A stretch of DNA of 32,000 bases from Dubosiella newyorkensis (GTDB lineage: Bacteria; Bacillota_I; Bacilli_A; Erysipelotrichales; Erysipelotrichaceae). Every line of letters starts with the position of its first letter. The stretch's first letter is position 1. Positions 1 through 24,326 of this stretch are shown one piece after another. The notes beneath the pieces were generated by a model, which searched no databases, was not told the DNA's origin, and saw nothing but the letters and a program-made list of their open reading frames with translations. Location: positions 1 to 32,000 of the forward strand of contig NZ_MPKA01000062.1 in NCBI RefSeq assembly GCF_001945605.1. The letters are read 5' to 3'. The translations under genes were made by a program, and so were the position numbers.

Positions 1-526
1 TGGCCGTGAGCCTGGGAATCGGAGCCGGAAGAAGAGGAACAGCACCTACTTCATCAAATGCCACGACCTCATCCAGCAGCTGAGAAAAGCCAACGAAGAA
101 AATCGGCTGGAAAACCGTTTGAAGAATTACAGCCGGTACAAGCTGCTGATTATCGACGAAATCGGGTATCTGCCGATCACAAAAGAAGAGTCGAAACTGT
201 TCTTTCAGCTGATCGACAAACGATACGAACAGAAAAGCACGATACTGACAACCAATATCGGCTTTGGCGAATGGGACGAGATATTTCAGGACCCCGTTAT
301 GGCCAATGCGATCCTGGACAGGATCCTGCATCATGCGCATGTCGTGTCCATTACCGGAAAGTCTTACCGTATGAAAGACCATATCAAGAAGAAGCCGCAC
401 ACCGAACAGGAATAAAGCAATTGGTCAAAATCGAAAGAAGGATCGAAAAGATCCTTCAGTATCTTTCAAACAAAATTGAGCATTTTTATCTCATCGAATT
501 TGTACATTTTTAACTTGACATCTACA
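1..526 (+). mobile_element. Right-hand part of an IS21-family insertion sequence (3' part of istB plus non-coding terminal region); the left part lies outside the window
   Basis: The IstB-like ORF ends at 415. A ~110-bp non-coding tail ends ...TTGACATCTACA at 526 (TGTAGATGTCAA... on the other strand, the TG-type terminus usual for IS21 ends). Directly beyond it a phage tape-measure-like frame begins. Confidence 0.7.
2..415 (+). CDS. istB: IS21-family helper ATPase IstB, C-terminal portion (5' end off window)
   Basis: Frame 2 reads ...STYFIKCHDLIQQLRKA...YKLLIIDEIGYLP (Walker B)...STILTTNIGFGEWDEIF...AILDRILHHAHVVSITGKSYR, typical IstB motifs. The first ~12 codons fit IstB better in frame 3 (see findings). 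Confidence 0.85.
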   Translation, partial: GREPGNRSRKKRNSTYFIKCHDLIQQLRKANEENRLENRLKNYSRYKLLIIDEIGYLPITKEESKLFFQLIDKRYEQKSTILTTNIGFGEWDEIFQDPVMANAILDRILHHAHVVSITGKSYRMKDHIKKKPHTEQE

Positions 527-670
527 CTGCGCCTTGATCATGATGTCGCCGATTTTCTTTACCGTTGTGTTCAACTCCGATAATACGGTCTCGATCCTTG
601 ATAACGCCCTGGTCATCCCTTCGTCGCGTGCACTAAGGATCGCCTCGATCTTATGTTGTGTTGAACTCAT
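527..670 (-). pseudogene. 5' fragment (~48 codons) of the tape measure protein gene, truncated by the IS
   Basis: The ATG at 670 overlaps the stop of the upstream chaperone ORF (ATGA, 667-670). It translates MSSTQHKIEAILSARDEGMTRALSRIETVLSELNTTVKKIGDIMIKAQ, then runs into IS sequence and stops at 491. The position after the G/T chaperones is where siphovirus TMP genes start. Confidence 0.5.
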
Positions 671-1002
671 GACCCATCGCCTCCTTTGTTCTTTTGAGCC
701 AGAAACCTTTTATAAGCCTCCAACTGTGGTGACATTTCCTTTTTCTTCGTTTGCTTCTTTTTCAAGCGGTCCAACGCGCGCTCATAGTCATACAGTTTCG
801 TGAATTTCGCGTAGATCAGGCGCCCTTTTTTATCCCGTAAGGAAGCCTTGTTGCTCGCGTAAGCCAGCTCGTGGATCCGATAATCGAGATCGACGTTTTT
901 CAATGCCTGAGCTTCACACAAGAGGCGATATTCATGCATATCCAGGTCGAGAGCTTGCTTCATTGTGTTGTAACCGAAAAAGCGAAAACAGTTGGCTGCC
1001 AC
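667..1002 (-). CDS. Tail assembly chaperone, downstream segment (gpT-like, probably made as a -1 frameshift extension of the 1026-1439 product)
   Basis: Lies between the chaperone ORF and the TMP start. The frame is open upstream to 1155 and is the -1 frame relative to 1026-1439. The listed GTG start has only a weak SD. Confidence 0.55.
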   Translation of the reverse strand: MAANCFRFFGYNTMKQALDLDMHEYRLLCEAQALKNVDLDYRIHELAYASNKASLRDKKGRLIYAKFTKLYDYERALDRLKKKQTKKKEMSPQLEAYKRFLAQKNKGGDGS

Positions 1003-1025
1003 CTCGTCGATCAGCTCTTGGGTGC

Positions 1026-1439
1026 TTATGCTTTCAGCTCGCCCTGTTTCAGCTTGTCCATTTCCTCTTTCACGGCCGCGCCCATCGGATCGGCCATTTT
1101 CTTCAATGCCTTCCTGCAGACATTCGCTTTGTACAAAAAACTGATCACCTCGTCGCTAAAGATATCCAAGTCTTCGCAAGATTCGAGATAGCCTTCAATG
1201 TCCTTTTTCGTCGGCCTTTCCTTGGCCTCGTGATTGCATAAGCTGTAAACGATATCGCGCAGCGCGCAAATATCACCAACCTCCTGCCATTGGATTACAG
1301 CCTGTGCCAGTCCTGTTCCAGCCCCGATCGTCGGGTTGTCCTTCTTGGAAGTTTCGCCAAGCATCTCTCTGTCGATTTCTGCTAAAAACCCAAATGTAGC
1401 CCGCAATTGGTGCACTTTATCTTTGATCGTGATTTCCAT
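1026..1439 (-). CDS. Tail assembly chaperone (gpG-like)
   Basis: 137-aa acidic protein immediately downstream of the major tail gene and upstream of the TMP. Good SD (AAAAAGGAGAAAAAAT-ATG). Confidence 0.6.
   Translation of the reverse strand: MEITIKDKVHQLRATFGFLAEIDREMLGETSKKDNPTIGAGTGLAQAVIQWQEVGDICALRDIVYSLCNHEAKERPTKKDIEGYLESCEDLDIFSDEVISFLYKANVCRKALKKMADPMGAAVKEEMDKLKQGELKA
1134..1140 (-). other. Candidate -1 programmed frameshift heptamer U UUU UUG
   Basis: The - strand reads AGT TTT TTG in the zero frame of 1026-1439, so T TTT TTG has X XXY YYZ phasing. It sits inside the 130-nt overlap with the open -1 frame. Confidence 0.45.
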
Positions 1440-1451
1440 ATTTTTTCTCCT

Positions 1452-1487
1452 TTTTAAAAATAAAAAGGAGTCGTTTAAAGACTCCTT
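1452..1487 (-). terminator. Rho-independent terminator/attenuator after the major tail gene
   Basis: - strand: AAGGAGTC-TTTAAAC-GACTCCTT (8-bp stem) followed by TTTTATTTTT. Confidence 0.6.
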
Positions 1488-2067
1488 ATGAATTGCTCTC
1501 GGCAGCGGTTTGAACTACTGTGTCTTTAAATACGTACTGAGCCGCTTCCAGCTGTTCCTGTGTCAAGGTCGCGTAGCCATCTTTAGGCTCGCCAAAAACA
1601 CCGACCGTTAAAGAATACTCAGTAAAATCCTCCGCATTTGCGGTCAGTTCAAACTCCGTAATATAGCCGTTATAGTAGCAGGATTCGTATTTCCCTGCAT
1701 TCTCTCCCGTACCTTCGATCGCTGTATTAATTTCCCAGACCTCAACGACCTTATCTTTCAATAAAGCCGCTTTTACCTTTTTAACGTTCTCGTCGCCTTT
1801 AGCGAAAAGAGCGTTCAGTGTGATCTCAATCTCTGCTCCTCCTGGAACACGAACTGATCCAGACTTTGTTACAACATTGTCCGCGTCCTTGGAAATGCTG
1901 GTCGATCCTTCCGTCTGAAATGCCAGAATCATCGCCGCTTCTTTTGTCAAATCTTCCAGGACACGAACTAAATACATAATTTTCGATCCCTGCACCGGTT
2001 CGGCCGCAAAGATCTGCAAGTCAAAATTCTGAATATTGACCTTGTTGAAATCAATTTTTGTTTTCAT
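1486..2067 (-). CDS. Major tail protein
   Basis: About 193 aa from the ATG at 2067 (SD GGAGGAAATAAG). Position before the chaperones. Sequence MKTKIDFNKVNIQNFDLQIFAAEP...LVRVLEDLTKEAA resembles phi13-type major tail proteins. Confidence 0.75.
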   Translation of the reverse strand: MKTKIDFNKVNIQNFDLQIFAAEPVQGSKIMYLVRVLEDLTKEAAMILAFQTEGSTSISKDADNVVTKSGSVRVPGGAEIEITLNALFAKGDENVKKVKAALLKDKVVEVWEINTAIEGTGENAGKYESCYYNGYITEFELTANAEDFTEYSLTVGVFGEPKDGYATLTQEQLEAAQYVFKDTVVQTAAESNS

Positions 2068-2068
2068 C

Positions 2069-2464
2069 TTATTTCCTCCAATATTTGTACTCACAATTCA
2101 CCAGCCCATGCATCAGTGGCTCCGATGTCGTATCATCTGGCAAAATGTCTTCGTCTCCTCCAGACATGCACCAGCCGTAAGAGGGCGAGGCGTCGATCGA
2201 TTGTGCGATACGGCGAATTCCAAAAAGCAAGGAGGAAAAATCGCCCCTCGCTCGAATGTTGTTCGTCCACGCGTGAATTGTAATATTTACCCGGCCGAAA
2301 AAGCCGCCTTTCACCTGATAAGAGGCAGAATCCTGCGTATTGCCAATGTAGATGAAAGGGTACGGCGTGTCCTCGGGAGGCAAATCTCCATCGTATACCC
2401 GATCTGGGAACGCTTTTTCAAGTGCCACACGAAACTGGCTGAATAACTCTTGTTGTGGACTCAT
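2069..2464 (-). CDS. Tail terminator / tail completion-type protein (assigned by position)
   Basis: 131 aa, directly upstream of the major tail gene. Stop lies next to the major tail start. Confidence 0.5.
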   Translation of the reverse strand: MSPQQELFSQFRVALEKAFPDRVYDGDLPPEDTPYPFIYIGNTQDSASYQVKGGFFGRVNITIHAWTNNIRARGDFSSLLFGIRRIAQSIDASPSYGWCMSGGDEDILPDDTTSEPLMHGLVNCEYKYWRK

Positions 2465-2808
2465 AGATCACTGATCGCCGCCTTTTTCAAGTCGATAATG
2501 AAGCGGTCTTTCTGGGCGTTGAACGCCGGTTCCATATATGGCTGCGCCTTCATAAATCGAGTGCCCAGCTCGACATATTCGGAATAGTGCGGTGTGGCAA
2601 AAACGACCCCCGTCTTTCCGCCATCTCGCATTTCAAGGCCAATGTTCCGCTTCAATGTTCCGGTATCGACTGGGCAAAGATCTTGTGCGCGCCCTTGCAT
2701 TTCCGAAGTGTTTTGAGCCACAGCTCGTGTGATCTTTGCTGGATCCGCCGCCTTGATCAGTTTCCGCTGCATCTCGTTCAGCCCACTAATATCGCATATA
2801 AGCCTCAT
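2461..2808 (-). CDS. HK97 gp10-family neck/tail-completion protein
   Basis: Motifs ...CPVDTGTLKRNI...YSEYVELGTRFMKAQPYMEPAF are typical of HK97-gp10-like proteins. ATGA overlaps on both sides. Confidence 0.7.
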   Translation of the reverse strand: MRLICDISGLNEMQRKLIKAADPAKITRAVAQNTSEMQGRAQDLCPVDTGTLKRNIGLEMRDGGKTGVVFATPHYSEYVELGTRFMKAQPYMEPAFNAQKDRFIIDLKKAAISDL

Positions 2809-3110
2809 TCCTGTACCTCCGTAAGCACGAACGTCTGCTTATGGCGCAGATTGCGTGCCCTTTCCACTTTGTAAAGTTTTTCGCCGATCCGGATCCGATC
2901 GAACGCCCGATCGTAATGATTTTGGATGTGGGCAGTTACGCTACCATCCTCAATTCGGCCGTAGATCAGACGCATCATGTCAACGCCCGTATCAAAGACG
3001 CTGGCCATCCGTCGCGTTTCAGAGATCGTTTGCGGTCCGTAGTTGCCTGTTGCGGCGTCATACGCGCCGTGTTCGATTTTCTGAAAGAAGATCGGGGTGT
3101 CGTATCTCAT
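2805..3110 (-). CDS. Head closure / head-tail adaptor protein
   Basis: The start at the ATG at 3110 forms an ATGA overlap with the upstream stop. About 101 aa (MRYDTPIFFQKIEHGAYDAATGNY...RIRIGEKLYKV), consistent in size and position with SPP1 gp16-like adaptors. Confidence 0.6.
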   Translation of the reverse strand: MRYDTPIFFQKIEHGAYDAATGNYGPQTISETRRMASVFDTGVDMMRLIYGRIEDGSVTAHIQNHYDRAFDRIRIGEKLYKVERARNLRHKQTFVLTEVQE

Positions 3111-3442
3111 AGGAACCGCACCCGCCCTTTCTTCTGGTCGTGTTGTTTGGACCTCCATGCCTGCATATCATCTTCGAATGGCGCGAAGTCATCATCGGTA
3201 AACGTCATACTTTCGCCTTCGATCGAATGGCTTGCCACGCCTTCCGATCCGATCCGGTTGAACCGTTTGATCGCGACTTCGACCAGGATGTAGGACAGCT
3301 CCTCTGGCATCGTCTGAACGCCCAGGAGCACGAGGAGGCGCGCCTGCGCGAGATTCAGGACCGCTTTGAGTTGGTCATCGTTCGCTTCATCGCGCTGATC
3401 GAGCATCAATTTGATCGTCTGCAACGTTTCCACGTCTCTCAC
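3107..3442 (-). CDS. gp6-like head-tail connector (DNA-packaging) protein
   Basis: 111 aa just after the capsid gene. The N-terminal LKLMLDQRDEANDDQLKAVLNLAQARL pattern is typical of gp6-like connector proteins. Confidence 0.6.
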   Translation of the reverse strand: MRDVETLQTIKLMLDQRDEANDDQLKAVLNLAQARLLVLLGVQTMPEELSYILVEVAIKRFNRIGSEGVASHSIEGESMTFTDDDFAPFEDDMQAWRSKQHDQKKGRVRFL

Positions 3443-3457
3443 CTACGTTTCTCGCTG

Positions 3458-4396
3458 CTACTTCGAGGACGGCGTGGCAGTCGTAGTCAATTTGACTTTA
3501 GCGACAGCCTTCTTGTTAACTTCCGGAATATACTCGCCAGACTTACCATGTCCTTGAAGCGCAACGCCATCAAAATCCTGCGCTTCGATCGTACGAGTCG
3601 TGTTGATACCGGTAAATGCCTTAGCAATGCCTTCGATGTAAGCGTAGACAACTTCGTTCTCCCCAAAATAGTCTTCTGCAACTTCCGTGATGACAAAGCC
3701 TTTGAATTTGCGTGCTTCATTGTCATCGATATTCACTGTGGATCCTTTGCTCGTTGTTGTCAGCCCGCTGTCTACGATCGCGTTATATACATCTGGTGTT
3801 ACTTTAGCGATTCTCTTACCTTTGGCTTTGACGTTCGTGAAGTATTTGGACAACTCACTGAACAATGCGGCGACCGTATCTTTCGTGATGCTGCTCACTT
3901 CGATCGTTTTCGAAGCGCTCTTCGAAATGAATGCTGCATGCTTACCGTTTAGTTCCTCAGTCACAGCCTGTGCCTGCAGATCGAGGCGATCGGCGATAGC
4001 TTGTTCAAAATCGGCATTGACCGTAGACCGGTCTACACCTTCGTGGAAAGCCCACTCTGCTGTATACGGAACATCGGTATCTTTATAGATGACTTCCGTG
4101 CGGTTTCCAAAACGAGATGTGCTTTCAGTGCCGGTACCAAACGCGACATTTTCGCCTTTGTTGTAAGTCCCGATCGTGACCGGGATATCCGACGTCTTGA
4201 CACTGAATGCCGTCGCGGAATCCCGAACGCCATCCACCACATCGATCTTCCCTCCAACGAAAAAGTCATTGAATTGGGCTTGTACACCGAATACGGCTAA
4301 CATGAGTTCTTTAAACTCCTTGCTGAACACCCGGATGTTCGAATTTTGCGGTTCATCCGCAAACATCTGAAGATTGATCTTTTTCATTCGCTTCAT
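3458..4396 (-). CDS. Major capsid protein with an L27-like N-terminal leader
   Basis: 312 aa following the scaffold gene. N-terminus MKRMKKINLQMFADEP. SD AAGAGG. Confidence 0.8.
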   Translation of the reverse strand: MKRMKKINLQMFADEPQNSNIRVFSKEFKELMLAVFGVQAQFNDFFVGGKIDVVDGVRDSATAFSVKTSDIPVTIGTYNKGENVAFGTGTESTSRFGNRTEVIYKDTDVPYTAEWAFHEGVDRSTVNADFEQAIADRLDLQAQAVTEELNGKHAAFISKSASKTIEVSSITKDTVAALFSELSKYFTNVKAKGKRIAKVTPDVYNAIVDSGLTTTSKGSTVNIDDNEARKFKGFVITEVAEDYFGENEVVYAYIEGIAKAFTGINTTRTIEAQDFDGVALQGHGKSGEYIPEVNKKAVAKVKLTTTATPSSK

Positions 4397-4412
4397 ACTT
4401 TTTACCTCTTTT

Positions 4413-5003
4413 CTATCGTTTATACTTATTCAGTTTTGCTTCGAAAGGGCTTGGCTTTTCATGGTCGGTCCGGTATATTTTCGGAGTTCGTCCCAGTGCC
4501 CTTTCAGCTTCGACTGCTTTACGATCTGCCTTGATGACCGACACGAGCTTCTCGATCCGCACGTTCGTATCTTCGGCAGTTTCTCCGACTACGAAGTCCA
4601 GGATATCCTGGGTAGCCGTGATCTTGTGATTCTCTTGAAGAATCGTGGCAGCGCTCTTGGAAAGTTCAGTACGTTGGGCTTGCTTTTCCAGCTGCGCGAT
4701 CTGGTTTTTCAAGTTCTCGTTTTCCGTCTGGATCTTTTCCTGTTCATACGCCTTTTTTTGTTCTTCGTTCATCTTTGCAAGCTTTTGCGCTTCTGTCCGA
4801 GCTTCCTCGATCTTTTTTTGGTTCTCTTTTTCAGCCCGTTTCAAACGCTCCTTCACGATCCGGTCCAGTTCTGCCTGGGTGAACGTCTTCTCCCTTTTTT
4901 CCTCTTCCGGTGCGTTTTCTTTAGCGTCCGGAGCGGTTTGCTCCTGTGGAGCATCTGTCTCGTCCGCAAAAAGCTGCAAGTTGAATGGTTTCACAATAAA
5001 CAT
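4413..5003 (-). CDS. Scaffolding protein with an L27-like N-terminal leader
   Basis: Start at the ATG at 5003 (SD GGGAGGTAAG). Sequence MFIVKPFNLQLFADETD..., then a long charged coiled-coil region rich in E/K/Q. Confidence 0.7.
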   Translation of the reverse strand: MFIVKPFNLQLFADETDAPQEQTAPDAKENAPEEEKREKTFTQAELDRIVKERLKRAEKENQKKIEEARTEAQKLAKMNEEQKKAYEQEKIQTENENLKNQIAQLEKQAQRTELSKSAATILQENHKITATQDILDFVVGETAEDTNVRIEKLVSVIKADRKAVEAERALGRTPKIYRTDHEKPSPFEAKLNKYKR

Positions 5004-5106
5004 TTTTCTTACCTCCCATAGTTTTACGTCACAATGTTTGACTTCCGTACCTTTTAACGTCTTGAACGTTTGGACATATAAAAAGGACAACGAATTCCGC
5101 TGCCCT

Positions 5107-6589: not shown

Positions 6590-6617
6590 ATTTTAGCACT
6601 TTATTTCTTTGAGTAAA
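6590..6617 (-). promoter_or_regulatory. Candidate sigma-A promoter overlapping the MuF stop, reading into the structured leader
   Basis: - strand: TTTACT (6617-6612), 16 nt, TAAAAT (6595-6590). Confidence 0.35.
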
Positions 6618-9012
6618 GTATTTCGGCTTTCTTGATAATTTTAGATGTTTTTCTTTCCGACATCATCCAACATGTGATTATTGAGCTAAGAAAATCTGGG
6701 TGATCCTCATCATTATTTAACCTTAACACAGCAAGGATATATTTACCTTCTGATTCAAAACGCTTTAATATCTTTCCTGTATTTTCTTTTTTATCTGCAA
6801 GAATATAATCTGGATCTTTTAAAGCCGTACATAGCTCACCCATAACCAACTTGTAAGCTTCAGGGTGCCTTTCAAGAATATGCCTTTTTTGTTCTCCGGT
6901 TATGATTATTTTATCTTCTCTAATTTCTCCCTTGATATTCAATAGAGCTTGCTTATTAAATTCAATAAAATAACTGGGCAATCTAACCTCTTTTATCCAT
7001 TGAAGAAGGGTTAATTGATGTAGATCAACCTCTTTTTTCCACTTCTCCCTTTCACTATTCCAATCCCTCCAACTCAGCCCGTGCTTGTCATATGTCTCGG
7101 TCCACTCGTCGAATAGTTTGACCTCTTCGTCGCTCACACCGAAATCCGTGCGCTCGATATAAGCAGAAGTAGAACATCTGCAATTACTAGTTACAAAACC
7201 GTTAGCAATGTATAATGTAGATAAACAGGAGGCATCATATACATGACCAGAAAAAGGCACAACATTGATGAAATCAACGTTATCGAACTTTACAAAAGTG
7301 GGAAAACAGTCAACGAAATTTCTAATATTTACGGCGTTCATAGATACACGATCGAAAGGATTATGAAAGCCAATGGAGTCAAATTGCCTGGAGTCCGTAT
7401 CGATCTCGACAGTACTAAGATCGCCGACCTTTATGTTTCCGGAATGAGCGAAAAAGCCATTTCCGAGCAATTCGGAGTAAGTCGCCCCACGATTCGTAGA
7501 CGACTCCTTGATTCTGGTGTCATAATCAGAACTCAAACGCAGGCTAACCAACTCATGATGAGTAAGAGAACCCGAGAAGAGAATATCCGCAACTCTGAGG
7601 CCGCCCATAATGCCATCAGAGGTTATACCTATTCCAGTGAGGAACTTTGACAACGAGCTTTCAAAAGGCAAAAATCTTTCGTTCAATTTGATAGTGCCTA
7701 CGAGGCTTCTATCGCTGATGAACTTAGAAAAAGAGGAATTAAGTTTATCCCTCAATTCGCCATTGATAAATACAATGTCGATTTCGCTATCGGGGATTAC
7801 ATCGCCCTTGAGGTCTACGGAGGTCACTGGCATTCGAAAGGTCGTCATGCTATTCGATTTAACGATCGAAGCAAAAAGATTTTCGATAGTGGTAGAGCTA
7901 TCGTGATTTGCTGGTTCACCAATAACATCACTACCGACATTACCGCAATAACGGACTACCTTATCTCCCTTGATAAGGTTCTTCGCTTTGACCCAGCCTC
8001 TCGCTGTAAGCATTATGTGATTAGGTGTGACGGTAAGTCGAGCTCCATCGGCCGTTCTAATCTCGACTACATCTCCTGAATATTCGCTTTTCATAATCGC
8101 CTCTGCATCAGGGGCGATTATTTGCGTGTCAGGCAAAACACAATTCGGATGCATAGGCGGAGCGTTCACGCCTGGCTGCATATCCTTCATGTCAAAATGT
8201 TTCCCGTTGATCGCTAAACAATGCGGGCAAGCCGTCCCTAGGGAATGGAACGTATATTGATCGAATCCGTTTTCTTCAAACGATCGGCGCTGCGCTTCCG
8301 TTTGAACCCGTGCCATTTCTGTGATCATCAAACGGTTCGCGTCGTATACGCTCGATTTTATCTTTTTTCGAAGCGTCCGCGCCAATTCTTTTGGATTGCG
8401 TCCCTGAATGAGTCCGGTCGATAAAAGGTTCCCCAGCTCGTTTCTTAATATATCCTGGTGCTTCCAGATCCGGTCGCTCCAAGTCGCGTTGTGAAAGCTG
8501 GCGTTCACGATCGAATGTGCGTAGCGGGCATTGTCATGGACCGTACGACCTAATATACCGGCTTGCCGTTTGAACGTCTCGATCGTGCGCTTGGTCAGCT
8601 TCTCTTCAAAGAAACGCTGCAGTTCGTCGAAGCCGCCGACCAGATGCATTCCGATGTTGGCTTTCAACAGCTCCAGCCGGTTCACCTTCATCGTGAGATT
8701 GTAAAGTCTCATCTCTTCATTGGCCTGATCGGAGAAATTTTTCTCGGCCACATACTTTTTAGCGAGCTCGGCATACGTTTTTATATCCAGTTTAGAGACT
8801 CTTTTTTTCGCTTCTGCATAGGTGATTCCCTCTTTTGTGGCGTATCGAGTGTAGAAATTGTTGATCTGGATCTCGATTTCATTCATCATCTGTCGGTAGA
8901 TGCGTTCGATCTCTTGGCTGTATGTCTTCTCTTCTTGGATATTGTGTTTCCGCTGCTCTTCTTCCCGCTCGCGCCAATAGTCGGCGCTACTTTTCGATTC
9001 CGGCTTCGCCAT
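6601..9012 (-). CDS. MuF / SPP1 gp7-family minor head protein, interrupted by an intein and fused to a C-terminal PBECR-type toxin-like nuclease domain
   Basis: N-terminal part: ...ITEMARVQTEAQRRSFEENGFDQYTFHSLGTACPHCLAINGKHF...APPMHPN|C (MuF domain). C-extein: CRCSTSAY.... C-terminus: ...IIITGEQKRHILERHPEAYKLV...DPDYIL...YILAVLRL (PBECR-like). Follows the portal gene. Confidence 0.85.
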   Translation of the reverse strand: MAKPESKSSADYWREREEEQRKHNIQEEKTYSQEIERIYRQMMNEIEIQINNFYTRYATKEGITYAEAKKRVSKLDIKTYAELAKKYVAEKNFSDQANEEMRLYNLTMKVNRLELLKANIGMHLVGGFDELQRFFEEKLTKRTIETFKRQAGILGRTVHDNARYAHSIVNASFHNATWSDRIWKHQDILRNELGNLLSTGLIQGRNPKELARTLRKKIKSSVYDANRLMITEMARVQTEAQRRSFEENGFDQYTFHSLGTACPHCLAINGKHFDMKDMQPGVNAPPMHPNCVLPDTQIIAPDAEAIMKSEYSGDVVEIRTADGARLTVTPNHIMLTARGWVKAKNLIKGDKVVRYCGNVGSDVIGEPANHDSSTTIENLFASIVKSNSMTTFRMPVTSVDLKGDVIPDSEIDIVFINGELRDKLNSSFSKFISDRSLVGTIKLNERFLPFESSLSKFLTGIGITSDGIMGGLRVADILFSGSLTHHELVSLRLSSDYDTRIKESSTNRGATYSELLGNGFFAHSGNIKVGDLSTVEIDTDSRQFDSIGFHNPFDRVSMNAVNIRNFVDCFPTFVKFDNVDFINVVPFSGHVYDASCLSTLYIANGFVTSNCRCSTSAYIERTDFGVSDEEVKLFDEWTETYDKHGLSWRDWNSEREKWKKEVDLHQLTLLQWIKEVRLPSYFIEFNKQALLNIKGEIREDKIIITGEQKRHILERHPEAYKLVMGELCTALKDPDYILADKKENTGKILKRFESEGKYILAVLRLNNDEDHPDFLSSIITCWMMSERKTSKIIKKAEILYSKK
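7243..7650 (+). CDS. Antisense-nested ORF, part 1: double helix-turn-helix DNA-binding module (homing-endonuclease-type targeting domain)
   Basis: AGGAGG at 7227-7232 and TATAAT at 7211-7216. Two repeats: INVIELYKSGKTVNEISNIYGVHRYTIERIMKANGV and KIADLYVSGMSEKAISEQFGVSRPTIRRRLLDSGV. Ends at an in-frame TGA (7648-7650). Confidence 0.7.
   Translation: MTRKRHNIDEINVIELYKSGKTVNEISNIYGVHRYTIERIMKANGVKLPGVRIDLDSTKIADLYVSGMSEKAISEQFGVSRPTIRRRLLDSGVIIRTQTQANQLMMSKRTREENIRNSEAAHNAIRGYTYSSEEL
7651..8079 (+). pseudogene. Antisense-nested ORF, part 2: Vsr/DUF559-like PD-(D/E)xK nuclease segment, same frame as part 1, with no start codon of its own
   Basis: SAYEASIADELRKRGIKFIPQFAIDKYNVDFAIGDYIALEVYGGHWHSKGRHAIRFNDRSKKIFDSGRAIVICWF fits the DUF559/Vsr-like pattern (E..L...G...Q....Y..DF......ALEV.G..WH......D..R...L...G..V). 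Open from the TGA to the stop at 8077-8079. Confidence 0.6.
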
Positions 9013-10396
9013 CGTCTACTTCCTCATGATCGTGTTCCGCAAAAAGTCCCTGGATGAGCTCGCTGTCCTTCGTCTCTTCTTCCTGGATCCGTTCCAATTC
9101 GGCGTCCGGATCGTCGACATAGGATAGCAGCGAAAGCTGGGTCCGTTTGGATACAAGGCCTTCGGCATCCTTTGCGATCGAAGTCTCTTCTGCCCGGTTG
9201 TTCGGGATATTTCTAGATGTCGTGATCACGATTTCTTTCCAAGCATCCGGATCGGGCACGTTTGTAGCCAGCGAACAGAAGATCTTGTACCGCTTTTTCA
9301 GCGATTTTTCAATTTTTCGATCAAATCCAAGCGCCAGATTGCTCATGGCCTGCAGCTTGTAGGCCAGTGAAACTCCGCTGGTCGCGTTGCCGTAAGCTTC
9401 ATCGCTGATGTTTGCGACCATCGAGATCTGATAGATCTGCTTCTCCAGCCGATCGAGGAGGTTTTCTTGTGTTCCGTCTGCCGTGGGTTTGGTCAAAAAC
9501 TGGACCACGACGTCCGAGGCGTTGTCTGTACCGTAAAAATTAATGACTCTCTCGTCCCGGATGCGTTTTACGTTATCCTCGTCGACTTCGGCTCCCAGGA
9601 TCGCTAGATAAGCCTCTGCGAATGCCTCTACATCGTTTGCTTTTTCAGAGATCACGCGGTTATACTCTTCGATCAGTCCGCCCACTGTTTCGAACAATCC
9701 GATCCGCTCGTCATTGAGACGGTATTCAACCACAGGAATGTATCCGTAGGGATTTTCTTGCGTATCTTCTTTCTTTTCGCCATCGAACGCGATGATCGAG
9801 TCTCTCGTAAGGATCTCGCCATACATATCGCCAAGATTTTGATCGTTGCTGGTTTGGCTGTTGTTTTCGTGATAGCCGTAGCGCACCGCGAACAAGGCGC
9901 GCTGCTTCAACGTATCGTCATAGACCACAAACAACTCGTCTGGTTTGACGGCCGTCATTTTTGTTTGACTCTTCTCGTCCTGGTAGAGATATTCGAAAGC
10001 ATGACCAAAAATACAAACATATTTCAAGAGCTCGAACTCATGATCCGAGATCTCATTGGCATCTTCGAATGCAGTGATCGTGTCCAAAACGGTCTGATCG
10101 GGATGTGTCTTCTTGATCCGGTTGCCATAAGCATAGCCCATGAAGGTGTCGGTAATGTAACGGGGGAAATTGGCCACAAGCCGGTTGTCCGGTTTCCAAT
10201 TCGGCTTGTTTGGAGAAAAAAAGATATCGTGAAACCCTTTGTACATCATCTCCAGGTACCGATATCTTTGTTTTCGTTTGTTATGCAGTTTGATATATTC
10301 TTCGACCAGCTCCATCGATATGCCGTTTTGGATACGGCTTGGATCGCATACAAGCGGATCCGGAAGCTGATAGGGGTTTTTTGATCGTGTCATCAT
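8987..10396 (-). CDS. Portal protein (SPP1 gp6-like)
   Basis: 469 aa between TerL and MuF. ATGA overlap with the TerL stop. N-terminal region YLEMMYKGFHDIF...KPDNRLVANFPRYITDTFMGY is typical of SPP1-type portals. Confidence 0.85.
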   Translation of the reverse strand: MMTRSKNPYQLPDPLVCDPSRIQNGISMELVEEYIKLHNKRKQRYRYLEMMYKGFHDIFFSPNKPNWKPDNRLVANFPRYITDTFMGYAYGNRIKKTHPDQTVLDTITAFEDANEISDHEFELLKYVCIFGHAFEYLYQDEKSQTKMTAVKPDELFVVYDDTLKQRALFAVRYGYHENNSQTSNDQNLGDMYGEILTRDSIIAFDGEKKEDTQENPYGYIPVVEYRLNDERIGLFETVGGLIEEYNRVISEKANDVEAFAEAYLAILGAEVDEDNVKRIRDERVINFYGTDNASDVVVQFLTKPTADGTQENLLDRLEKQIYQISMVANISDEAYGNATSGVSLAYKLQAMSNLALGFDRKIEKSLKKRYKIFCSLATNVPDPDAWKEIVITTSRNIPNNRAEETSIAKDAEGLVSKRTQLSLLSYVDDPDAELERIQEEETKDSELIQGLFAEHDHEEVDDGEAGIEK

Positions 10397-15886: not shown

Positions 15887-17245
15887 TCATCTTCTTAACG
15901 CGTCCAGAAGAGTGCGCTGAGTGACCTCTTTCGACTGGAGGGCTCTCAGCATGTCTTCATCGATCGTGCCCTTTGCCAGGATGTGATAGATCACGACAGG
16001 ATCCTGCTGTCCCTGACGATAGATCCTGGCGTTGGCTTGTTGGTACAGCTCAAGGTTCCAGTTTGGCAAGCTGTACCACACACCAATGTGGCCACCTTTT
16101 TGAAGGTTCAGTCCATGCCCGGCACTGGCAGGATGGACCAGCAGCATGTCGATCTTGCCGACATTCCAGTCTTCGATGTCCTGGTGCGTGTCCAAGGCGC
16201 GCACGCTGTACTGCTTTTCGAAATGGTTTCGGATCCGATCGGCTTCGTGCTTGAAATAGTAGAAGACCATGACTGGCTGGCCATTGGCGGAAGTCATCAA
16301 GTCTTCCAGCTCCAGGAGCTTCATATCATGCAGCGTGTGGACATCTTTGTGATCGGATGTATAGATCTGTCCGGAAGCAAATTCCGAAAGAAACAAGGTC
16401 AGGACGCCAGCATTGGCGGCCATGATCGCGTCGTCCATCTGTCCTTGACACACTTCCAGGATCTTCTCTCGTTTAAACGTTTTGTACTTCTGCAAAGCCA
16501 CTCCAAGATCGATCAAACGGTCGATATAGGTGACGGGAGGAAGATCGGCACATTCCGACTGCTTGATACTCATGCAGATGTCGCCGACCGTGTCATAAAT
16601 CTGCTCCTGCGCTCCGTCTTTCACGCCCCAGTCGTATACGACATGGCCATTCATCCGGGCCGGATACAAATATCGGGCCTGAAAGATTCGCTGTGTTTTT
16701 CCCAGGCGTTCCCCCTGATCCATCAAATAGATCTGCGCCCAAAGATCAGGGATGCCTTTCGGGGCAGGAGTTCCGGTCAGCCCAATGAATCGCTTCGTCG
16801 CTGGCATCACACGGCGCAGGGCCTTGAAGCGCTTGGCTTTTGGACTTTTGAAAGTCGACAGCTCATCGATCACGACCAGCTCGAACGGCCATCGCTGATC
16901 AAGGTGATCGATCAGATCGGCGACATTGTCCTTGCTCACCAGATAGATGTCTTTTCCGGAAGGAATCGCCGCCTTGCCTTTGGCCATCGGCGCTGTGATC
17001 AAAGCCCAGGTCAGGAACCGGGTATGGTCCCACTTTTGGATCTCGTCCGGCCACGTCGATTCAACGACGCGTTTCGGACCGATGATCAGGACCTTTTGGA
17101 CATCGAACATCAGAAGCTCCGAGATCACGGACAAAGTCGACACCGTCTTGCCGGCGCCCATCGGCAGGAACAGGCCACACGTGGGCCGATCCAATGCCCA
17201 CGCGATCGCCTTCGCCTGGTACGAATGCGGGCGGAATACGGTCAT
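15887..17245 (-). CDS. SNF2-family DEAD/DEAH-box helicase
   Basis: The ATG at 17245 (SD GGAGGGAAG) forms an ATGA overlap with the VRR-NUC stop. Motifs LPMGAGKT (I), VVIDELSTFK (II), GLTGTP (III) and QANARIYRQGQ (VI). Confidence 0.85.
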   Translation of the reverse strand: MTVFRPHSYQAKAIAWALDRPTCGLFLPMGAGKTVSTLSVISELLMFDVQKVLIIGPKRVVESTWPDEIQKWDHTRFLTWALITAPMAKGKAAIPSGKDIYLVSKDNVADLIDHLDQRWPFELVVIDELSTFKSPKAKRFKALRRVMPATKRFIGLTGTPAPKGIPDLWAQIYLMDQGERLGKTQRIFQARYLYPARMNGHVVYDWGVKDGAQEQIYDTVGDICMSIKQSECADLPPVTYIDRLIDLGVALQKYKTFKREKILEVCQGQMDDAIMAANAGVLTLFLSEFASGQIYTSDHKDVHTLHDMKLLELEDLMTSANGQPVMVFYYFKHEADRIRNHFEKQYSVRALDTHQDIEDWNVGKIDMLLVHPASAGHGLNLQKGGHIGVWYSLPNWNLELYQQANARIYRQGQQDPVVIYHILAKGTIDEDMLRALQSKEVTQRTLLDALRR

Positions 17246-17580
17246 ACTTCCCTCCGGAACCTCAGCGCGCACATCATTCTGTCAACCATCTCTTTGTTCC
17301 AGATCACGAAGACCGGAACGTTTTGATGCTGAAGCTGCTGGATCTGATATTTCTGCACTTTCGATAAGCGGCCAGAGTCGCGTTTCAATTCAACGAAAAA
17401 CTGGATCCCGTACAAAGTGCACCACCGGTCCGGAACGCCCTGCATTCCTGGTGATGTGAATTTCCAGCACAGACCTCCCTTCGCTTCGATTCTTTCCTTC
17501 AAATACTTCTCAACATCTCTTTCGTACTCCACTTTTCTCCTCCTATCTATGCGTACGGCAACAAATGTAAACAAAGTCAC
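17242..17580 (-). CDS. VRR-NUC domain nuclease
   Basis: ...GGLCWKFTSPGMQGVPDRWCTL...FFVELKRDSGRLSKVQKYQIQQL is the PD-(D/E)xK pattern of VRR-NUC proteins. Confidence 0.8.
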   Translation of the reverse strand: MTLFTFVAVRIDRRRKVEYERDVEKYLKERIEAKGGLCWKFTSPGMQGVPDRWCTLYGIQFFVELKRDSGRLSKVQKYQIQQLQHQNVPVFVIWNKEMVDRMMCALRFRREV

Positions 17581-20227: not shown

Positions 20228-22192
20228 TTAATCTTTCTTGTAGTAGTCGGATACAAAGCCGTCGGCCGTCAGGATCAGTCCTGGCGCCCAGTCGATCGGT
20301 TCGGCCATTAGATCCTCCAGAATCTGTAAAGACTCTTCAGCCCGATCGGCCGGCACTTCGCAGATGATCTCGTCATGAACATGAGCGATGATCCGGAAAT
20401 CGGTTCTTTTAGTCACCCGTTCGAGTGCTACGGCCAGACAGTCCCGCGCGATGGCCTGAACGATATTCTCCGTCAGCTTCCCGCCAAAGGTATCGACGCG
20501 CGACATCTTCGTTCCTGTGTGTTTCGCGTACGAGATTTTGTCGTCCTTGAGCGTCGGCATCCAGTAGGCCATGCACCGCCCAGAAGGCAACTGGATGAAT
20601 ACATAACCTGGCCGACGAATGAACCGGATGCCGTGGCGGAGATTTACAGCCTCCCCATTGAGGCATCGCTTGAAGCCCGATTCGATTGAACGCCATAACT
20701 TGCATATGTGAGGCGAAGCCCCTCGCCACTTCCTTACGATTTCTTTCATCTCTGTCTCATTAAGCCCCATCTTGTCGGCGCCAAACGCGATCAGCGCGCC
20801 AATACCACCCTGATAGCCCAAAGCCAATTCTGCCACCTTGCCCTGTTTGCGCAGATGGCTGTTGACTCCATGCTTCTCGACTGGTACGCCGAACATCTGG
20901 CTGGCTGAAGCACAATAGATATCTTTCCCGTCGGCAAAGGCTTTCATGCGCCACCCTTCATCAGCCAGCCAGGCAATCACTCTTGCTTCGATGGCACTAT
21001 AGTCAGCCACGATCAATTTGTGGCCTTCTTCTGGCACGATCACGGTCCGAATGAGAGTCTTGGCTGCTTCGGTGATCGATCCGTACAATAGTGTCAGCAT
21101 GTCGAAGTCGTTGTTGAGCACACATTGACGCGCCGGATCGAAGTCGTAGAACGCCAATTTAGAGGGCATATTTTGAAATTGGACCAAACGTCCGGCCCAT
21201 CGTCCGGTACGGCCGCCAAAGAAGCGGAAGCATCCGCGCACACGGCCGTCATCGGAAACGCATTTAGTCATCGCGATATATTTTTTGATCGAGCTCGATC
21301 CGGACTCTAAGCGAAGCTCCAGAACTCTTCTAACATCCTCCGGGAGCTCGCCTTTGAGCAGTTCCTTGATCGTCGGCTTGTTGAGCGACTCGATCTGCAT
21401 CCCAGTCTCCTGATAGATCCACTCCTTGAGCTGGATGATCGAGTTCAGGTTGATACCGCCCGTGATCTTCTCGCATTCTTCTTTCATCTCTTTGACCATG
21501 AGCGGGTATTTTTCTGTCAAGTTCTTGATCATCGTCATCTCGAGACGTACTCCAGTATCATTGATTCGCTGATCAATGCAGTAGCGCATCCACTCCTCTT
21601 CCGGCATCGGGTATCGCCGCAGCTTGTTGTAGATCTCTTGTTCGACCTCGACGTCGCGTTTGTTGTAGAAGACGAAGCGCCCCCACTTTTCGGGATCGTC
21701 TTCGGGCATGTTCCGTGTCCGTCCTCCATTGGCTTTTGTCGGCTTGCACGGCTTGGAGAAGTAGTTGATCAGAAGAGTTCCGGCGCTGTCTTTGGCCAAC
21801 TCGCACCCGATCGCTTCGGCACAATGTTTCAGAGATGCAGGCAAGCCCAGCTCGCACGCGTGGATCATCGTGCAGTACCAGGCTTTCGGATCAAGGTAAT
21901 TATGGTTTTTTCCATCGCCAAACGCGTGCGACAGACAGATCCTTTCGAAGCTGGCATTGTGCGCCACCTTCATTACTTCGGGGTCCAGGATGTCCCGTAG
22001 CACCTTCGCCGGCATGGTCTTCCGGGTCGGCATCTCGATGACCTGGACCGGATCGTCGTTATAAGCAAAAGCGAGGAGCAGGATCTGAAATCCGGCATCC
22101 TCGCAGTAGTTGTATACAGATGATTTGCCGAGGTCGATCGGCGAGTACGTTTCGAGGTCGATGTGCAGCACCCTAGGCGAACGGGTCTTCAT
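20228..22192 (-). CDS. Family-A DNA polymerase with N-terminal 3'-5' exonuclease
   Basis: Exo I HIDLETYS. Motif A VADYSAIEARVIAW, motif B RKQGKVAELALGYQGG, motif C AHVHDEI. The start is uncertain (22192 chosen; the ORF is open to 22282). Confidence 0.9.
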   Translation of the reverse strand: MKTRSPRVLHIDLETYSPIDLGKSSVYNYCEDAGFQILLLAFAYNDDPVQVIEMPTRKTMPAKVLRDILDPEVMKVAHNASFERICLSHAFGDGKNHNYLDPKAWYCTMIHACELGLPASLKHCAEAIGCELAKDSAGTLLINYFSKPCKPTKANGGRTRNMPEDDPEKWGRFVFYNKRDVEVEQEIYNKLRRYPMPEEEWMRYCIDQRINDTGVRLEMTMIKNLTEKYPLMVKEMKEECEKITGGINLNSIIQLKEWIYQETGMQIESLNKPTIKELLKGELPEDVRRVLELRLESGSSSIKKYIAMTKCVSDDGRVRGCFRFFGGRTGRWAGRLVQFQNMPSKLAFYDFDPARQCVLNNDFDMLTLLYGSITEAAKTLIRTVIVPEEGHKLIVADYSAIEARVIAWLADEGWRMKAFADGKDIYCASASQMFGVPVEKHGVNSHLRKQGKVAELALGYQGGIGALIAFGADKMGLNETEMKEIVRKWRGASPHICKLWRSIESGFKRCLNGEAVNLRHGIRFIRRPGYVFIQLPSGRCMAYWMPTLKDDKISYAKHTGTKMSRVDTFGGKLTENIVQAIARDCLAVALERVTKRTDFRIIAHVHDEIICEVPADRAEESLQILEDLMAEPIDWAPGLILTADGFVSDYYKKD

Positions 22193-22805
22193 CGTTGTCG
22201 CCGCTGCCAAAAGCCGATGCCGAAGCCATGTCTGCGAAATCCGACTCTGCCGATGCGGATCCGGTACCCAGCGGTTCGCCATCCGACATCTTGCACACGT
22301 TGTTCAACCCTTTCGAGATACCCATACCACCCTGCGGGTGATTATACGGATACATGGACAGCGTGACCTGGCAATAGTCGCCGCCCTGAATGTCTTCTTC
22401 GCCAAGATGGACGAGTGCCCCGTCCTGGACGGCTACGACGCCCGGCTTGTTCTTGCGCTTCAGGTTCATCAGGTAACAGCCTTTCACGTCTTCCGCATCC
22501 AGCGAGTCAGGACGCAGATCGGAATCGCAGTCGATCAGGATACCCTTGTTGCCGCCGTCCGGACGGATGAGTGGCGTCTTCCCCTTAGACTGGAACTTTG
22601 CCCCGTGTTTCTTCACGCCGGCTTCGAAAGCCGCCTTGTAGGCCGCGTTGATCGCGTTCAATGTCTTCTTGTCTTCCTTGTCGATCAGGATGGCCACGCT
22701 GTACGATGGCTCCGAGTCCTGATTTTCCGATGCGTATGGTGCGAATAAGTGCGGCCATACGATCCGCACGGTTCCAGTTCTTACATCTTCTGGTCTTTTT
22801 GCCAT
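22173..22805 (-). CDS. DUF2815-family protein (phage replication-module protein, possibly ssDNA-binding)
   Basis: N-terminus MAKRPEDVRTGTVRIVWPHLFAPYA...SYSVAILIDKED and its position between DUF2800 and PolA fit DUF2815. Acidic C-terminal tail. Confidence 0.65.
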   Translation of the reverse strand: MAKRPEDVRTGTVRIVWPHLFAPYASENQDSEPSYSVAILIDKEDKKTLNAINAAYKAAFEAGVKKHGAKFQSKGKTPLIRPDGGNKGILIDCDSDLRPDSLDAEDVKGCYLMNLKRKNKPGVVAVQDGALVHLGEEDIQGGDYCQVTLSMYPYNHPQGGMGISKGLNNVCKMSDGEPLGTGSASAESDFADMASASAFGSGDNDEDPFA

Positions 22806-22807
22806 GA

Positions 22808-23929
22808 TTATTCTCCTCCTTTGATCATGTCGCTAAAATCTTCGACCGCATCCGAATAGACGGGCCTTTTATCTGTGATTGGAACAAGCACAGGCTTGCC
22901 GCGCGGTTTATCGATATAAACCTCCGCCAATTCTGCGAAACGCTTTTTTCCGCACATCTTTTCAAGGCCGCCAATGCCAAGCAGCTCTTTCGGCTTATAG
23001 AGCTTGTTTTCTTCGTATCCTTCAGCAAGCAGCTTCTGGACGAGACTTTCTTTATCGCTGATCGTACGTCGGCTCGTCCCTTCGACAACTTTCCAGCCTT
23101 CGAATTCTGCTCCTTCCAAAGCTTGTCTTAAAGCTTCGTCCTGAAGTTCTTTGGCCCACGCCTGGATCGGATCGAGCTCATTAAGAAGCAGAGAGATCTC
23201 TTTTTGAGAAAGAAGATGTCGTCTTCGATAGGCTGCGATCTCTTCCATCTGCGCGGCTCTTGCTTTGCATGTCGATCGCGCCTTGCAGAATCGGCAGTGA
23301 GCGCCGGCGCATGCTTCTCCTTCGCCGGTCATTGCTTTTTGAGCGGCTGGAACAACGATCGTTTCAAGCCAGTCAAGAATGGCTGTTTTGGTCGTCTCCC
23401 ACGACGCTACGTTTTGGATCCTAGGCTGGAAGATGTGCAGTGTCACTCGTTCGAAGTCATAGAAGCTTCCGAGCAGATCGATCGCGCCGGCCGCATAAAG
23501 CATCAGCTGAGAGTTTTCTTCCGGATCGACCGGGACGCCTTTGCCATACTTAAAGTCGATCACATCAAGTCCGGCGTCAGACACGATCAAGGCGTCGCCT
23601 GTTCCAAAACCAGACGGAACCCAGCGCGAATAGTCGAGACGCTCTTCGATCAGCAGTTCCGGATTGTTGTGGCTGTTATAGATGCTGACCACATAGTCTT
23701 TGTAGTCGGTCGTGGCCTCATCCATCTCCTTGTCGGAGCACTCGATCTTCTTGCGCCCCTTCGACTTCCACTTCTTCAGCTTCTCTTCACAGATCGAGTG
23801 GGCAAGCGTGCCTTCCTGCGTGTAAATGGTGTCGGTATTCGGGAACGTCGATTCGAGCTTGGCTGAAACTGGACAGTTCAGCCATTTGCTCGATGACGAT
23901 GCCGATAAGAACGCGTGTTGGCTAGGCAT
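22808..23929 (-). CDS. DUF2800-family Cas4/RecB-like PD-(D/E)xK nuclease with an Fe-S cysteine cluster
   Basis: N-terminus HAFLSASSSSKWLNCP. DALIVSD...IDFKYGKG nuclease motifs. C-terminal C...CRFCKARSTC cluster. Confidence 0.75.
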   Translation of the reverse strand: MPSQHAFLSASSSSKWLNCPVSAKLESTFPNTDTIYTQEGTLAHSICEEKLKKWKSKGRKKIECSDKEMDEATTDYKDYVVSIYNSHNNPELLIEERLDYSRWVPSGFGTGDALIVSDAGLDVIDFKYGKGVPVDPEENSQLMLYAAGAIDLLGSFYDFERVTLHIFQPRIQNVASWETTKTAILDWLETIVVPAAQKAMTGEGEACAGAHCRFCKARSTCKARAAQMEEIAAYRRRHLLSQKEISLLLNELDPIQAWAKELQDEALRQALEGAEFEGWKVVEGTSRRTISDKESLVQKLLAEGYEENKLYKPKELLGIGGLEKMCGKKRFAELAEVYIDKPRGKPVLVPITDKRPVYSDAVEDFSDMIKGGE

Positions 23930-24326
23930 GATCAATCAGCTCCATCAGCTCGCCGTACTTCGCAGGGTCGAGTGTCGTTAGATTCTTGGCGCCAAGCTGA
24001 CTCAGCAAAGCCTTGAATCTAGGCCCATCCAGTTTTGACATCGCGGCCGCTCGAACTTCTTCGAGTGTGTAGGCTTTCTCTTCAGTTGGCTTTGGTTCAG
24101 TTTTGGTTTGAGTGTTGGTTTTGGTCACTTCTGGTCGCTTGATCGCCTGCTTGGTTGCGTGCTCGTCTTCGAACGGTCTGTCCAGATCGTCTTTGGTCAG
24201 TTTCTGTTTTTCTAAGGTGAATCCCATCTGATCGGGTTCGATCGTGGCCGATGGGTTGGCTAGGAAGCCCATCAGCTGGGCTTCGATTTCGGCGTAGCTG
24301 TCGCCTGTGATTTCTACTCTTATCAT
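23922..24326 (-). CDS. Hypothetical protein
   Basis: 134-aa ORF, coupled to the downstream gene. T/K/P-rich linker. Confidence 0.55.
   Translation of the reverse strand: MIRVEITGDSYAEIEAQLMGFLANPSATIEPDQMGFTLEKQKLTKDDLDRPFEDEHATKQAIKRPEVTKTNTQTKTEPKPTEEKAYTLEEVRAAAMSKLDGPRFKALLSQLGAKNLTTLDPAKYGELMELIDHA

Follow-up and report, generated by a model that had tools for sequence, protein, structure and literature searches.

The stretch of DNA analysed here, referred to as the window, comprises 32,000 nucleotides of Dubosiella newyorkensis (contig NZ_MPKA01000062.1, positions 1 to 32,000 of the forward strand). It contains a phage head gene interrupted by an intein, and a putative homing-endonuclease gene is nested antisense inside that intein. 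The head gene is located on the minus strand at 6601..9012 as an open reading frame (ORF) of 803 codons plus stop. It encodes a MuF-like minor head protein, which matched the Pfam family Phage_Mu_F at 3.5e-13 and Intein_splicing at 6.2e-9, the latter over residues 295-607 with a large internal gap. The full MuF protein scored 36.3 bits with the intein model against a cut-off of 35.8, and the excised intein alone scored 35.1 bits. A preliminary description of this DNA had placed a MuF intein with Hint blocks at 7183-8142; these matches, together with junctions that align across about 80 loci, bear this out.

The intein has 320 codons (7183..8142, minus strand) and reads CVLPDTQ...TVTPNH...HVYDASCLSTLYIANGFVTSN, followed by Cys. 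Its N-terminal nucleophile Cys1 (8140-8142) and block B, TVTPNH (8017..8034, with the TPNH of the TxxH motif at 8017-8028), are conserved in the aligned loci shown. Blocks F-G occupy 7183..7245. The C-terminal stretch, also given as GHVYDASCLSTLYIANGFVTSN, ends in ...TSN with the terminal Asn at 7183-7185, and the next residue is the +1 Cys of the C-extein (7180-7182). The insertion point is a conserved MuF motif, HPN|CRC. When the MuF gene was compared with phage sequences by blastn, the matches were confined to the N-extein of two records; they led to an intein-less MuF allele in the related gut phage contig MT835606 (L087). This allele reads HPMHPN|CHCSTAAY and defines the empty site, so the comparison with insert-free MuF genes proposed in the preliminary description could be made. 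We predict that 7183-8142 is an intein of class-1 type and that the MuF head-morphogenesis gene around it belongs to a prophage or phage.

The centre of the intein in the minus frame is rich in Ser (12.5%), and neither a domain nor a nuclease was matched there in Pfam or PHROG, as the preliminary description had it. The minus-frame intein matched intein/HINT models and also phrog_15127, a family of head proteins, at 1.6e-30 over its full length, because those head proteins evidently carry homologous insert DNA.

On the plus strand, 7243..8079 forms a frame of 279 codons with one in-frame TGA, which by its translation and its homologues is an antisense-nested homing-endonuclease gene. Coordinates and translation confirmed that this frame is in exact codon register antisense to the intein frame. 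Block B, read on the plus strand, overlaps the C-terminal tail of the endonuclease ORF. Two helix-turn-helix (HTH) repeats are encoded at 7276..7503 (about residues 12-42 and 60-87), with Pfam HTH_28 at 12-42 and HTH_23 at 60-87. The plus translation matched HTH_23 at 3.3e-9, HTH_28 at 2e-8 and HTH_7 at 8e-7, with two matching stretches each. It also matched phage DNA-binding and endonuclease PHROGs, as well as MTES_1575, a restriction-endonuclease-like family, at 2.8e-6, which is below Pfam's cut-off. Thus the two HTH repeats and the Vsr-like nuclease that had been noticed in this frame were both recovered. When profiles were run on both translations, a check named beforehand, HTH and nuclease matches were found on the plus frame only. 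AT skew is positive across 7100-7850 and negative in the flanks, as expected if the plus strand is the selected coding strand there.

The Vsr-like (EDxHD / I-Bth0305I-type) nuclease core lies 3' of the TGA at 7702..7917 and is supported by MTES_1575, by the structure 3R3P and by Foldseek. It includes E154 (7702-7704), D180 (7780-7782), E190 (7810-7812) and H197 (7831-7833). The match to PDB 3R3P, the catalytic domain of I-Bth0305I, had an E value of 1.6e-4 with a profile of 38 homologues and 7e-3 with the C-terminal half of the window protein alone. In this alignment NVDF...ALEV.G..WHSK pairs with the D196/H213 region, and E154, D180 and H197 align with E170, D196 and H213 of I-Bth0305I. Uninterrupted homologues of the plus-strand protein are 277-282 aa long and 48-61% identical to it. 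An AF2 model of one of them, P0001 (61% identity), had a mean pLDDT of 83.8, with values above 90 in the nuclease core, and showed two three-helix units in the HTH region. A Foldseek search of the PDB with this model returned 3r3p first (probability 1.0), followed by Vsr (1cw0, 1vsr). Conservation within the family is highest at E154, D180, E190 and R209, each present in 74-76 of the 76 unique proteins.

I-Bth0305I is the prototype of the EDxHD family, with two HTH repeats and a Vsr-like nuclease (PMC3239194), and was the best PDB match to the plus-strand protein in both sequence and fold. The two share N-terminal HTH/NUMOD-like repeats, the C-terminal Vsr-like nuclease and the aligned E, D (NVDF) and H (WHSK). 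They differ in context, as I-Bth0305I lies in a group I intron of phage recA with no coding overlap, whereas the window gene is dual-coded; identity is about 20%.

Related loci were widespread in phages. A tblastn search with the plus-strand protein matched 122 GenBank phage records at about 30-34% identity, including 62 from Salmonella, 15 from Gordonia, 15 from Pseudomonas and 8 from Klebsiella, as well as Vibrio, Acinetobacter, Haemophilus/Aggregatibacter and others. Shigella is also among the phage hosts over which the family extends. Among the 30 matches listed, nearly all lay under coding sequences (CDSs) annotated as MuF, head morphogenesis, minor capsid, structural or hypothetical, and one record was unannotated. 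In the four records inspected (Aaphi23, Gordonia Vivi2, Salmonella SE1 and Vibrio 1.113.A), the match was antisense to the MuF CDS and both ORFs were uninterrupted. A Massilioclostridium coli prophage has the same arrangement, with the nested antisense ORF annotated by NCBI, and IMG/VR yielded 79 further loci. A scan of genome contigs with the plus-strand protein gave no confirmed relative. In the predicted-protein databases the antisense endonuclease comes almost only from contigs of about 1 kb with a truncated MuF, while on long contigs gene callers nearly always retain only MuF; the endonuclease gene is therefore systematically under-annotated.

To determine which strand is under protein-level selection, differences were counted by codon position in 17 non-overlapping sequence pairs of 2-34% divergence. 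The alignment of the centre was built from minus-frame proteins, and the register is such that plus position 3 is minus position 1. At minus positions 1/2/3 the differences numbered 1123/824/1977 in the N-extein and 228/175/463 in the C-extein. The intein N blocks gave 51/25/105 and the C blocks 49/24/111. In the intein centre the counts were 1308/466/827, so the most variable codon position there is plus position 3; minus position 1 exceeded position 3 in 16 of the 17 pairs (p = 1.8e-25, binomial, an approximate value). The overlap with block B was balanced, at 100/33/108. By the Nei-Gojobori method (NG86), dN/dS in the centre was 0.05-0.67 in the plus frame, with most pairs at about 0.2, and 0.5-2.3 in the minus frame, at about 0.85; in the exteins the minus frame gave 0.04-0.7. 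Amino-acid identity was higher in the plus frame than in the minus frame in 2856 of 2917 pairs. Between the window and its nearest relatives it was 0.50-0.60 in the plus frame against 0.37-0.49 in the minus frame. The flip in codon position, the dN/dS values and the identities indicate that the endonuclease is the protein-selected product in the intein centre. This is the opposite of the outcome that the preliminary description had named as counting against it: the synonymous-type variation of the centre in relatives belongs to the plus frame. From these comparisons the intein frame in the centre is judged to be kept open but otherwise close to neutral, and the splicing blocks and exteins to be selected on the minus strand.

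The plus-strand ORF was recounted to contain 14 Leu and 25 Ser codons, of which none is TTA, CTA or TCA, the codons that would place a stop in the antisense frame, in agreement with the preliminary count. The weight of this absence depends on the codon usage with which it is compared. When the plus-strand protein was recoded with the usage of all long ORFs of the window, the probability of no antisense stop was 0.03; with MuF extein usage it was 1.2e-4, with 7.8 stops expected. TTA, CTA and TCA are rare in the genome of the window, and long codon-aligned antisense ORFs are common in the window since shadow ORFs arise easily where these codons are rare. Paired long ORFs of this kind (200-460 aa) were seen at 15890-17323, 4374-5090, 22110-22805, 22811-23935 and 9758-10381. 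Extein usage and the family-wide comparison are preferred because many long ORFs of the window are themselves antisense shadows. Judged from the window alone, the evidence for stop avoidance is moderate.

The related loci strengthened this point considerably. The codon-aligned antisense frame stays open for 470-1400 codons in about 85 loci, and the other two antisense frames for 8-240. In the 75 tabulated loci, which range from 40 to 74% GC, plus-frame stops occurred in 1 of 20,255 central codons compared with 565 of 30,307 extein codons (1.9%; Fisher p about 1e-124). In the minus frame, 0.7-18 stops per locus were expected when the plus-strand protein was recoded with local usage, and none was observed in the 75 loci. 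The proposal that selection keeps both frames open, which from the window could be held only moderately, is thus supported by about 80 related loci.

The signals for translation of the plus strand are built into block F. The ATG start at 7243 is the complement of the block-F His codon CAT (7245-7243), and a Shine-Dalgarno-like (SD-like) AGGAGG (7227..7232, plus strand) lies 10 nt 5' of it within the block-F coding sequence. Across 79 loci the plus-strand start falls at the residue before the block-F VY(N/D) motif and is ATG in 64, GTG in 10 and TTG in 2, opposite a codon for His (CAT or CAC) or Gln (CAA). Of 78 loci, 61 have an SD-like 4-mer at -16..-5, a motif found in 6.9% of background windows. 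The GGAGG or a near match, 8-10 nt upstream, is the complement of NLQ/NLE codons, or of DAS in the window subfamily. Subfamilies with different minus-frame amino acids at these codons nevertheless keep GGAGG, which suggests that the plus-strand signal is selected, with the reservation that the sites are homologous and not independent. The preliminary description had paired AGGAGG with a TATAAT hexamer (7211..7216, plus strand). Both are present and the SD motif is kept in the family, while a promoter role of TATAAT, which has no matching -35, is unsupported.

The plus frame had first been taken to read as a real protein. This needs correction for the window copy, in which codon 136 (7648-7650, plus strand) is an in-frame TGA. 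It is the only plus-frame stop in the 20,255 central codons, and the plus frame is intact in all 74 other loci tabulated. The column is Cys (EELCKRA; TGT or TGC) in 23 of 24 close relatives, so the window differs from them at this codon by one third-position change, TGY to TGA. The TGA falls between the HTH region and the nuclease, and the 142 codons past it are open, with E154, D180, E190, H197 and R209 all intact. It is TCA (Ser) in the intein frame and is harmless to MuF because that frame stays open. Most likely, the TGA is a recent nonsense mutation that inactivated the endonuclease gene of the window copy; such a mutation is the expected fate of an endonuclease gene once its element is fixed.

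The same codon admits another explanation, in which the window endonuclease is still functional. The TGA would then be a sequencing or assembly error, or a leaky UGA-C read through to give a full-length enzyme, perhaps at a deliberately low dose. The intact ORF and nuclease residues past the TGA, and the single third-position change that separates it from the Cys codon of the relatives, would fit this. Since the stop is unique among the 75 loci, read-through is not a trait of the family. A recoding signal was neither searched for nor noticed, and inactivation after fixation is what is expected of a homing-endonuclease gene. We consider a functional window enzyme improbable, though it is the most serious competitor to a fresh nonsense mutation.

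A second alternative is that the plus-strand ORF has been domesticated, either as a 135-residue two-HTH product acting as a DNA-binding regulator or through an antisense transcript that regulates MuF. The truncated product would retain both HTH domains, and many members of the family lack the catalytic His and yet remain under purifying selection. The residues most conserved in the family are nevertheless those of the nuclease core (E154, D180, E190 and R209), near-identical inteins in diverged exteins indicate ongoing homing, and there was no pointer to any regulatory target. Domestication is therefore rated as very unlikely.

The minus frame might instead encode a real, novel endonuclease domain of a conventional intein, with the plus-strand ORF a chance shadow. 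The frequency of long codon-aligned antisense ORFs in the window and the full-length match to phrog_15127 lend themselves to this idea, but the PHROG match merely reflects homologous DNA. The Pfam and PDB matches are confined to the plus frame, plus position 3 is the most variable in the centre, and dN/dS there is about 0.2 in the plus frame against about 0.85 in the minus frame. Plus-frame stops are nearly absent from the centre and make up 1.9% of extein codons, and the plus-strand start codon and SD sequence are conserved. On the profile matches, dN/dS, stop counts and start signals this explanation was rejected and retains hardly any credibility. Equally little credit can be given to a fractured gene with a split intein (Dassa et al. 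2009), in which MuF halves would be made separately and trans-spliced with a free-standing endonuclease gene between them: the Vsr-like/EDxHD family is indeed the one found between split-intein halves (PMC2677866) and a few database proteins (P0048, P0049) stop shortly after block B, but the minus frame is continuous and in register from N-extein to C-extein in the window and about 80 loci, lacks all of the 0.7-18 stops expected per locus in the 75 tabulated, contains no internal stop/start pair in its 803-codon ORF and, unlike fractured genes, has the endonuclease gene on the opposite strand, and the explanation was rejected for the single uninterrupted ORF and the antisense gene.

Two further observations concern interrupted copies. 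In the database MuF proteins P0048 and P0049 the reading frame apparently changes and the protein terminates some 90 residues inside the intein; these could be decayed or split variants of the element, or could stem from sequencing errors, the contigs being short. In L006 (3383-5655), on a metagenome contig of 2.6x coverage, MuF has a frameshift inside the intein and the plus-strand ORF is only 185 aa; either the copy has decayed or the contig was misassembled.

We conclude with high confidence that the locus is a MuF intein whose central 279 codons are, in codon register, the reverse complement of a gene for a homing endonuclease of I-Bth0305I/EDxHD (Vsr-like) type, which most likely was freshly inactivated in the window copy. 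This conclusion combines the anatomy of the locus, its homology, the selection on both frames and the signs of horizontal transfer seen in the sequences compared. Splicing, antisense expression and cleavage are predicted from it. The MuF mRNA would be read straight through the antisense side of the endonuclease gene, giving a spacer of about 240 residues with little protein-level constraint, placed between blocks B and F where inteins usually harbour their endonuclease. The intein would next be excised by its HINT blocks, restoring HPN-CRC. From the opposite strand the endonuclease would be made, starting at the ATG complementary to the block-F His with the upstream GGAGG built into block F. 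In MuF alleles that lack the intein, the enzyme would cleave close to the HPN|CRC codons, and the composite element would be copied in full as the break is repaired, which constitutes homing. The window copy would represent the stage of the homing cycle after fixation, with a freshly inactivated endonuclease gene in a still-required intein.

Several points weigh against this conclusion. A promoter scan of the window found no credible promoter for the plus-strand ORF, as TATAAT has no acceptable -35 and the hits were no more numerous than in shuffled sequence. The window and the loci closest to it have Ser (SN|C) as the penultimate intein residue, whereas His occupies this position in most of the other aligned loci shown. 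A penultimate His is not obligatory in all functional inteins. The EDxHD catalytic His is present in the window subfamily (GGHWHS), but across the wider family only about one member in three has it: of the 76 unique proteins, about two thirds carry R, K, A or N in the column of H197, equivalent to H213 of I-Bth0305I. No confident position could be assigned to the final Asp of the EDxHD motif (D208?). Active-site chemistry may differ between subfamilies, or some lineages may be inactive. An AF2 model of the minus-frame intein from a 7-sequence alignment had a pLDDT of 33, too poor to judge whether the centre is disordered. A plus-frame motif was used to retrieve the related loci, which mildly biases the set towards intact plus-strand ORFs, and the pairs of the codon-position test share ancestry, so that its p-values are approximate. 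The TGA, finally, could be a sequencing error or a leaky stop.

Signs of mobility came from pairs of loci in which the intein centre and the N-extein have diverged to very different degrees. L001 and L025 differ at 0 positions in the intein centre and 21 in the N-extein, L040 and L043 at 1 and 45, and L023 and L026 at 2 and 55. Near-identical centres within diverged exteins are a signature of recent transfer. As to the proteins that carry the composite of intein and antisense gene, 62 of 75 N-exteins were reached by jackhmmer from the window MuF, and the other exteins include the related families Phage_min_cap2 and VG15, and possibly terminase. In one locus (L078) the same intein occurs at TNTVR|C...HN|CRPP in a 1382-aa fusion of a UDG-family-4 protein and a family A DNA polymerase (UDG-PolA; 43-4191, minus strand), with its antisense Vsr-like endonuclease ORF at 3169-3948 (plus strand). 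We interpret this as a move to a new extein, at a site whose context is once more Asn/Arg-Cys-Arg. The L078 fusion has a second, apparently conventional intein further downstream.

In two loci, L084 and L085 (2965-3837, plus strand, and 3768-4622, minus strand), a homologous ORF with two HTH repeats and a Vsr-like nuclease is free-standing. It lies just downstream of, and convergent with, an intein-less MuF-like gene ending ...NPNCAGERYGSSCRCV, and overlaps the last ~70 nt of that gene. This layout may represent the ancestral state of the composite, and the free-standing ORF fits an origin by invasion of a mini-intein by an endonuclease gene.

The MuF proteins also vary at their C-termini. In the window a PBECR2 domain (phage Barnase-EndoU-ColicinE5/D-RelE-like nuclease) is encoded at 6709-6930 on the minus strand (Pfam 1.1e-6), and the window MuF is therefore a "polyvalent" protein with a toxin-like tail. 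A relative, L005, has an ADPrib_exo_Tox (ADP-ribosyltransferase) domain in place of PBECR2.

The preliminary description had regarded an antisense-nested arrangement in a contiguous intein as unreported. This is superseded by a survey of actinobacteriophage inteins by Gosselin, Arsenault and Gogarten (bioRxiv 10.1101/2025.01.02.630785, version October 2025), which describes anti-sense VSR-like endonucleases inside full inteins, including those of minor capsid proteins, with an HHpred match to 3R3P. The window element is thus a member of a recently described, rare arrangement. In both sets the intein is contiguous, the endonuclease ORF lies antisense between the splicing blocks and its Vsr-like product matches 3R3P, the exteins include minor capsid (MuF) proteins and DNA polymerase, and there are signs of horizontal transfer; the MuF inteins of Gordonia phages (Vivi2, Fosterous and others) are arranged as in the window. 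The preprint is confined to actinophages of PhagesDB, and start codons and ribosome-binding sites are unmentioned in its text. The window element differs from the actinophage set in its low-GC, Clostridia-type prophage context and its nonsense codon. The distribution outside actinophages, the quantification of both frames, the flip in codon position and dN/dS, the block-F start and SD sequence, and the free-standing relative beside an intein-less MuF appear to go beyond the preprint.

Other known systems are more distant. For anti-sense LAGLIDADG endonucleases (Ssp DnaX and others) the preprint cites Gorbalenya 1998 and Gogarten 2002; there too an endonuclease ORF lies opposite a contiguous intein, but the nuclease family (LAGLIDADG instead of Vsr-like/EDxHD) and the exteins differ. 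In the fractured genes of Dassa et al. 2009 (PMC2677866), Vsr-like or GIY-YIG endonucleases occur as same-strand free-standing genes between split-intein halves. The endonuclease family and its insertion point in the intein are those of the window, but the same-strand gene splits the intein into two trans-splicing ORFs, whereas the intein frame of the window is continuous. The two arrangements are probably two outcomes of invasion of an intein by a free-standing endonuclease gene. From a canonical intein with an in-frame LAGLIDADG or HNH domain the window element differs in that its minus frame has no recognisable endonuclease domain and a dN/dS of about 0.85.

In the usual view of inteins, the homing endonuclease is a domain in the intein's own reading frame. 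In the present arrangement, which is kept across very distant phages, a single stretch of 840 bp would code for a translated spacer of the intein and, on its other strand, for an endonuclease under selection. We lean, with some reserve, towards regarding the composite as an obligately dual-coded mobile unit. The start of its antisense gene (a His/Gln codon as the complement of ATG/GTG/TTG) and its GGAGG (the complement of NLQ/NLE/DAS) would both be drawn from block F, and it would have spread in phages of at least three bacterial phyla and into MuF, Phage_min_cap2, VG15 and UDG-PolA. If so, few conserved gene pairs known from prokaryotic viruses would overlap fully antisense over a greater length (about 280 codons), and the composite would be a living example of the intermediate that a model of mini-intein invasion by free-standing endonuclease genes calls for. 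Common phages in which the endonuclease is under-annotated include the Salmonella Jersey-like phages, which have been considered for therapy. The composite would offer a clean natural system for the evolution of antisense overlapping genes. Because the endonuclease could be knocked out by intein-silent mutations, the coupling of intein and endonuclease and the homing cycle would be directly testable. To this the window adds a Clostridia-type prophage example that was probably caught just after inactivation of the endonuclease.

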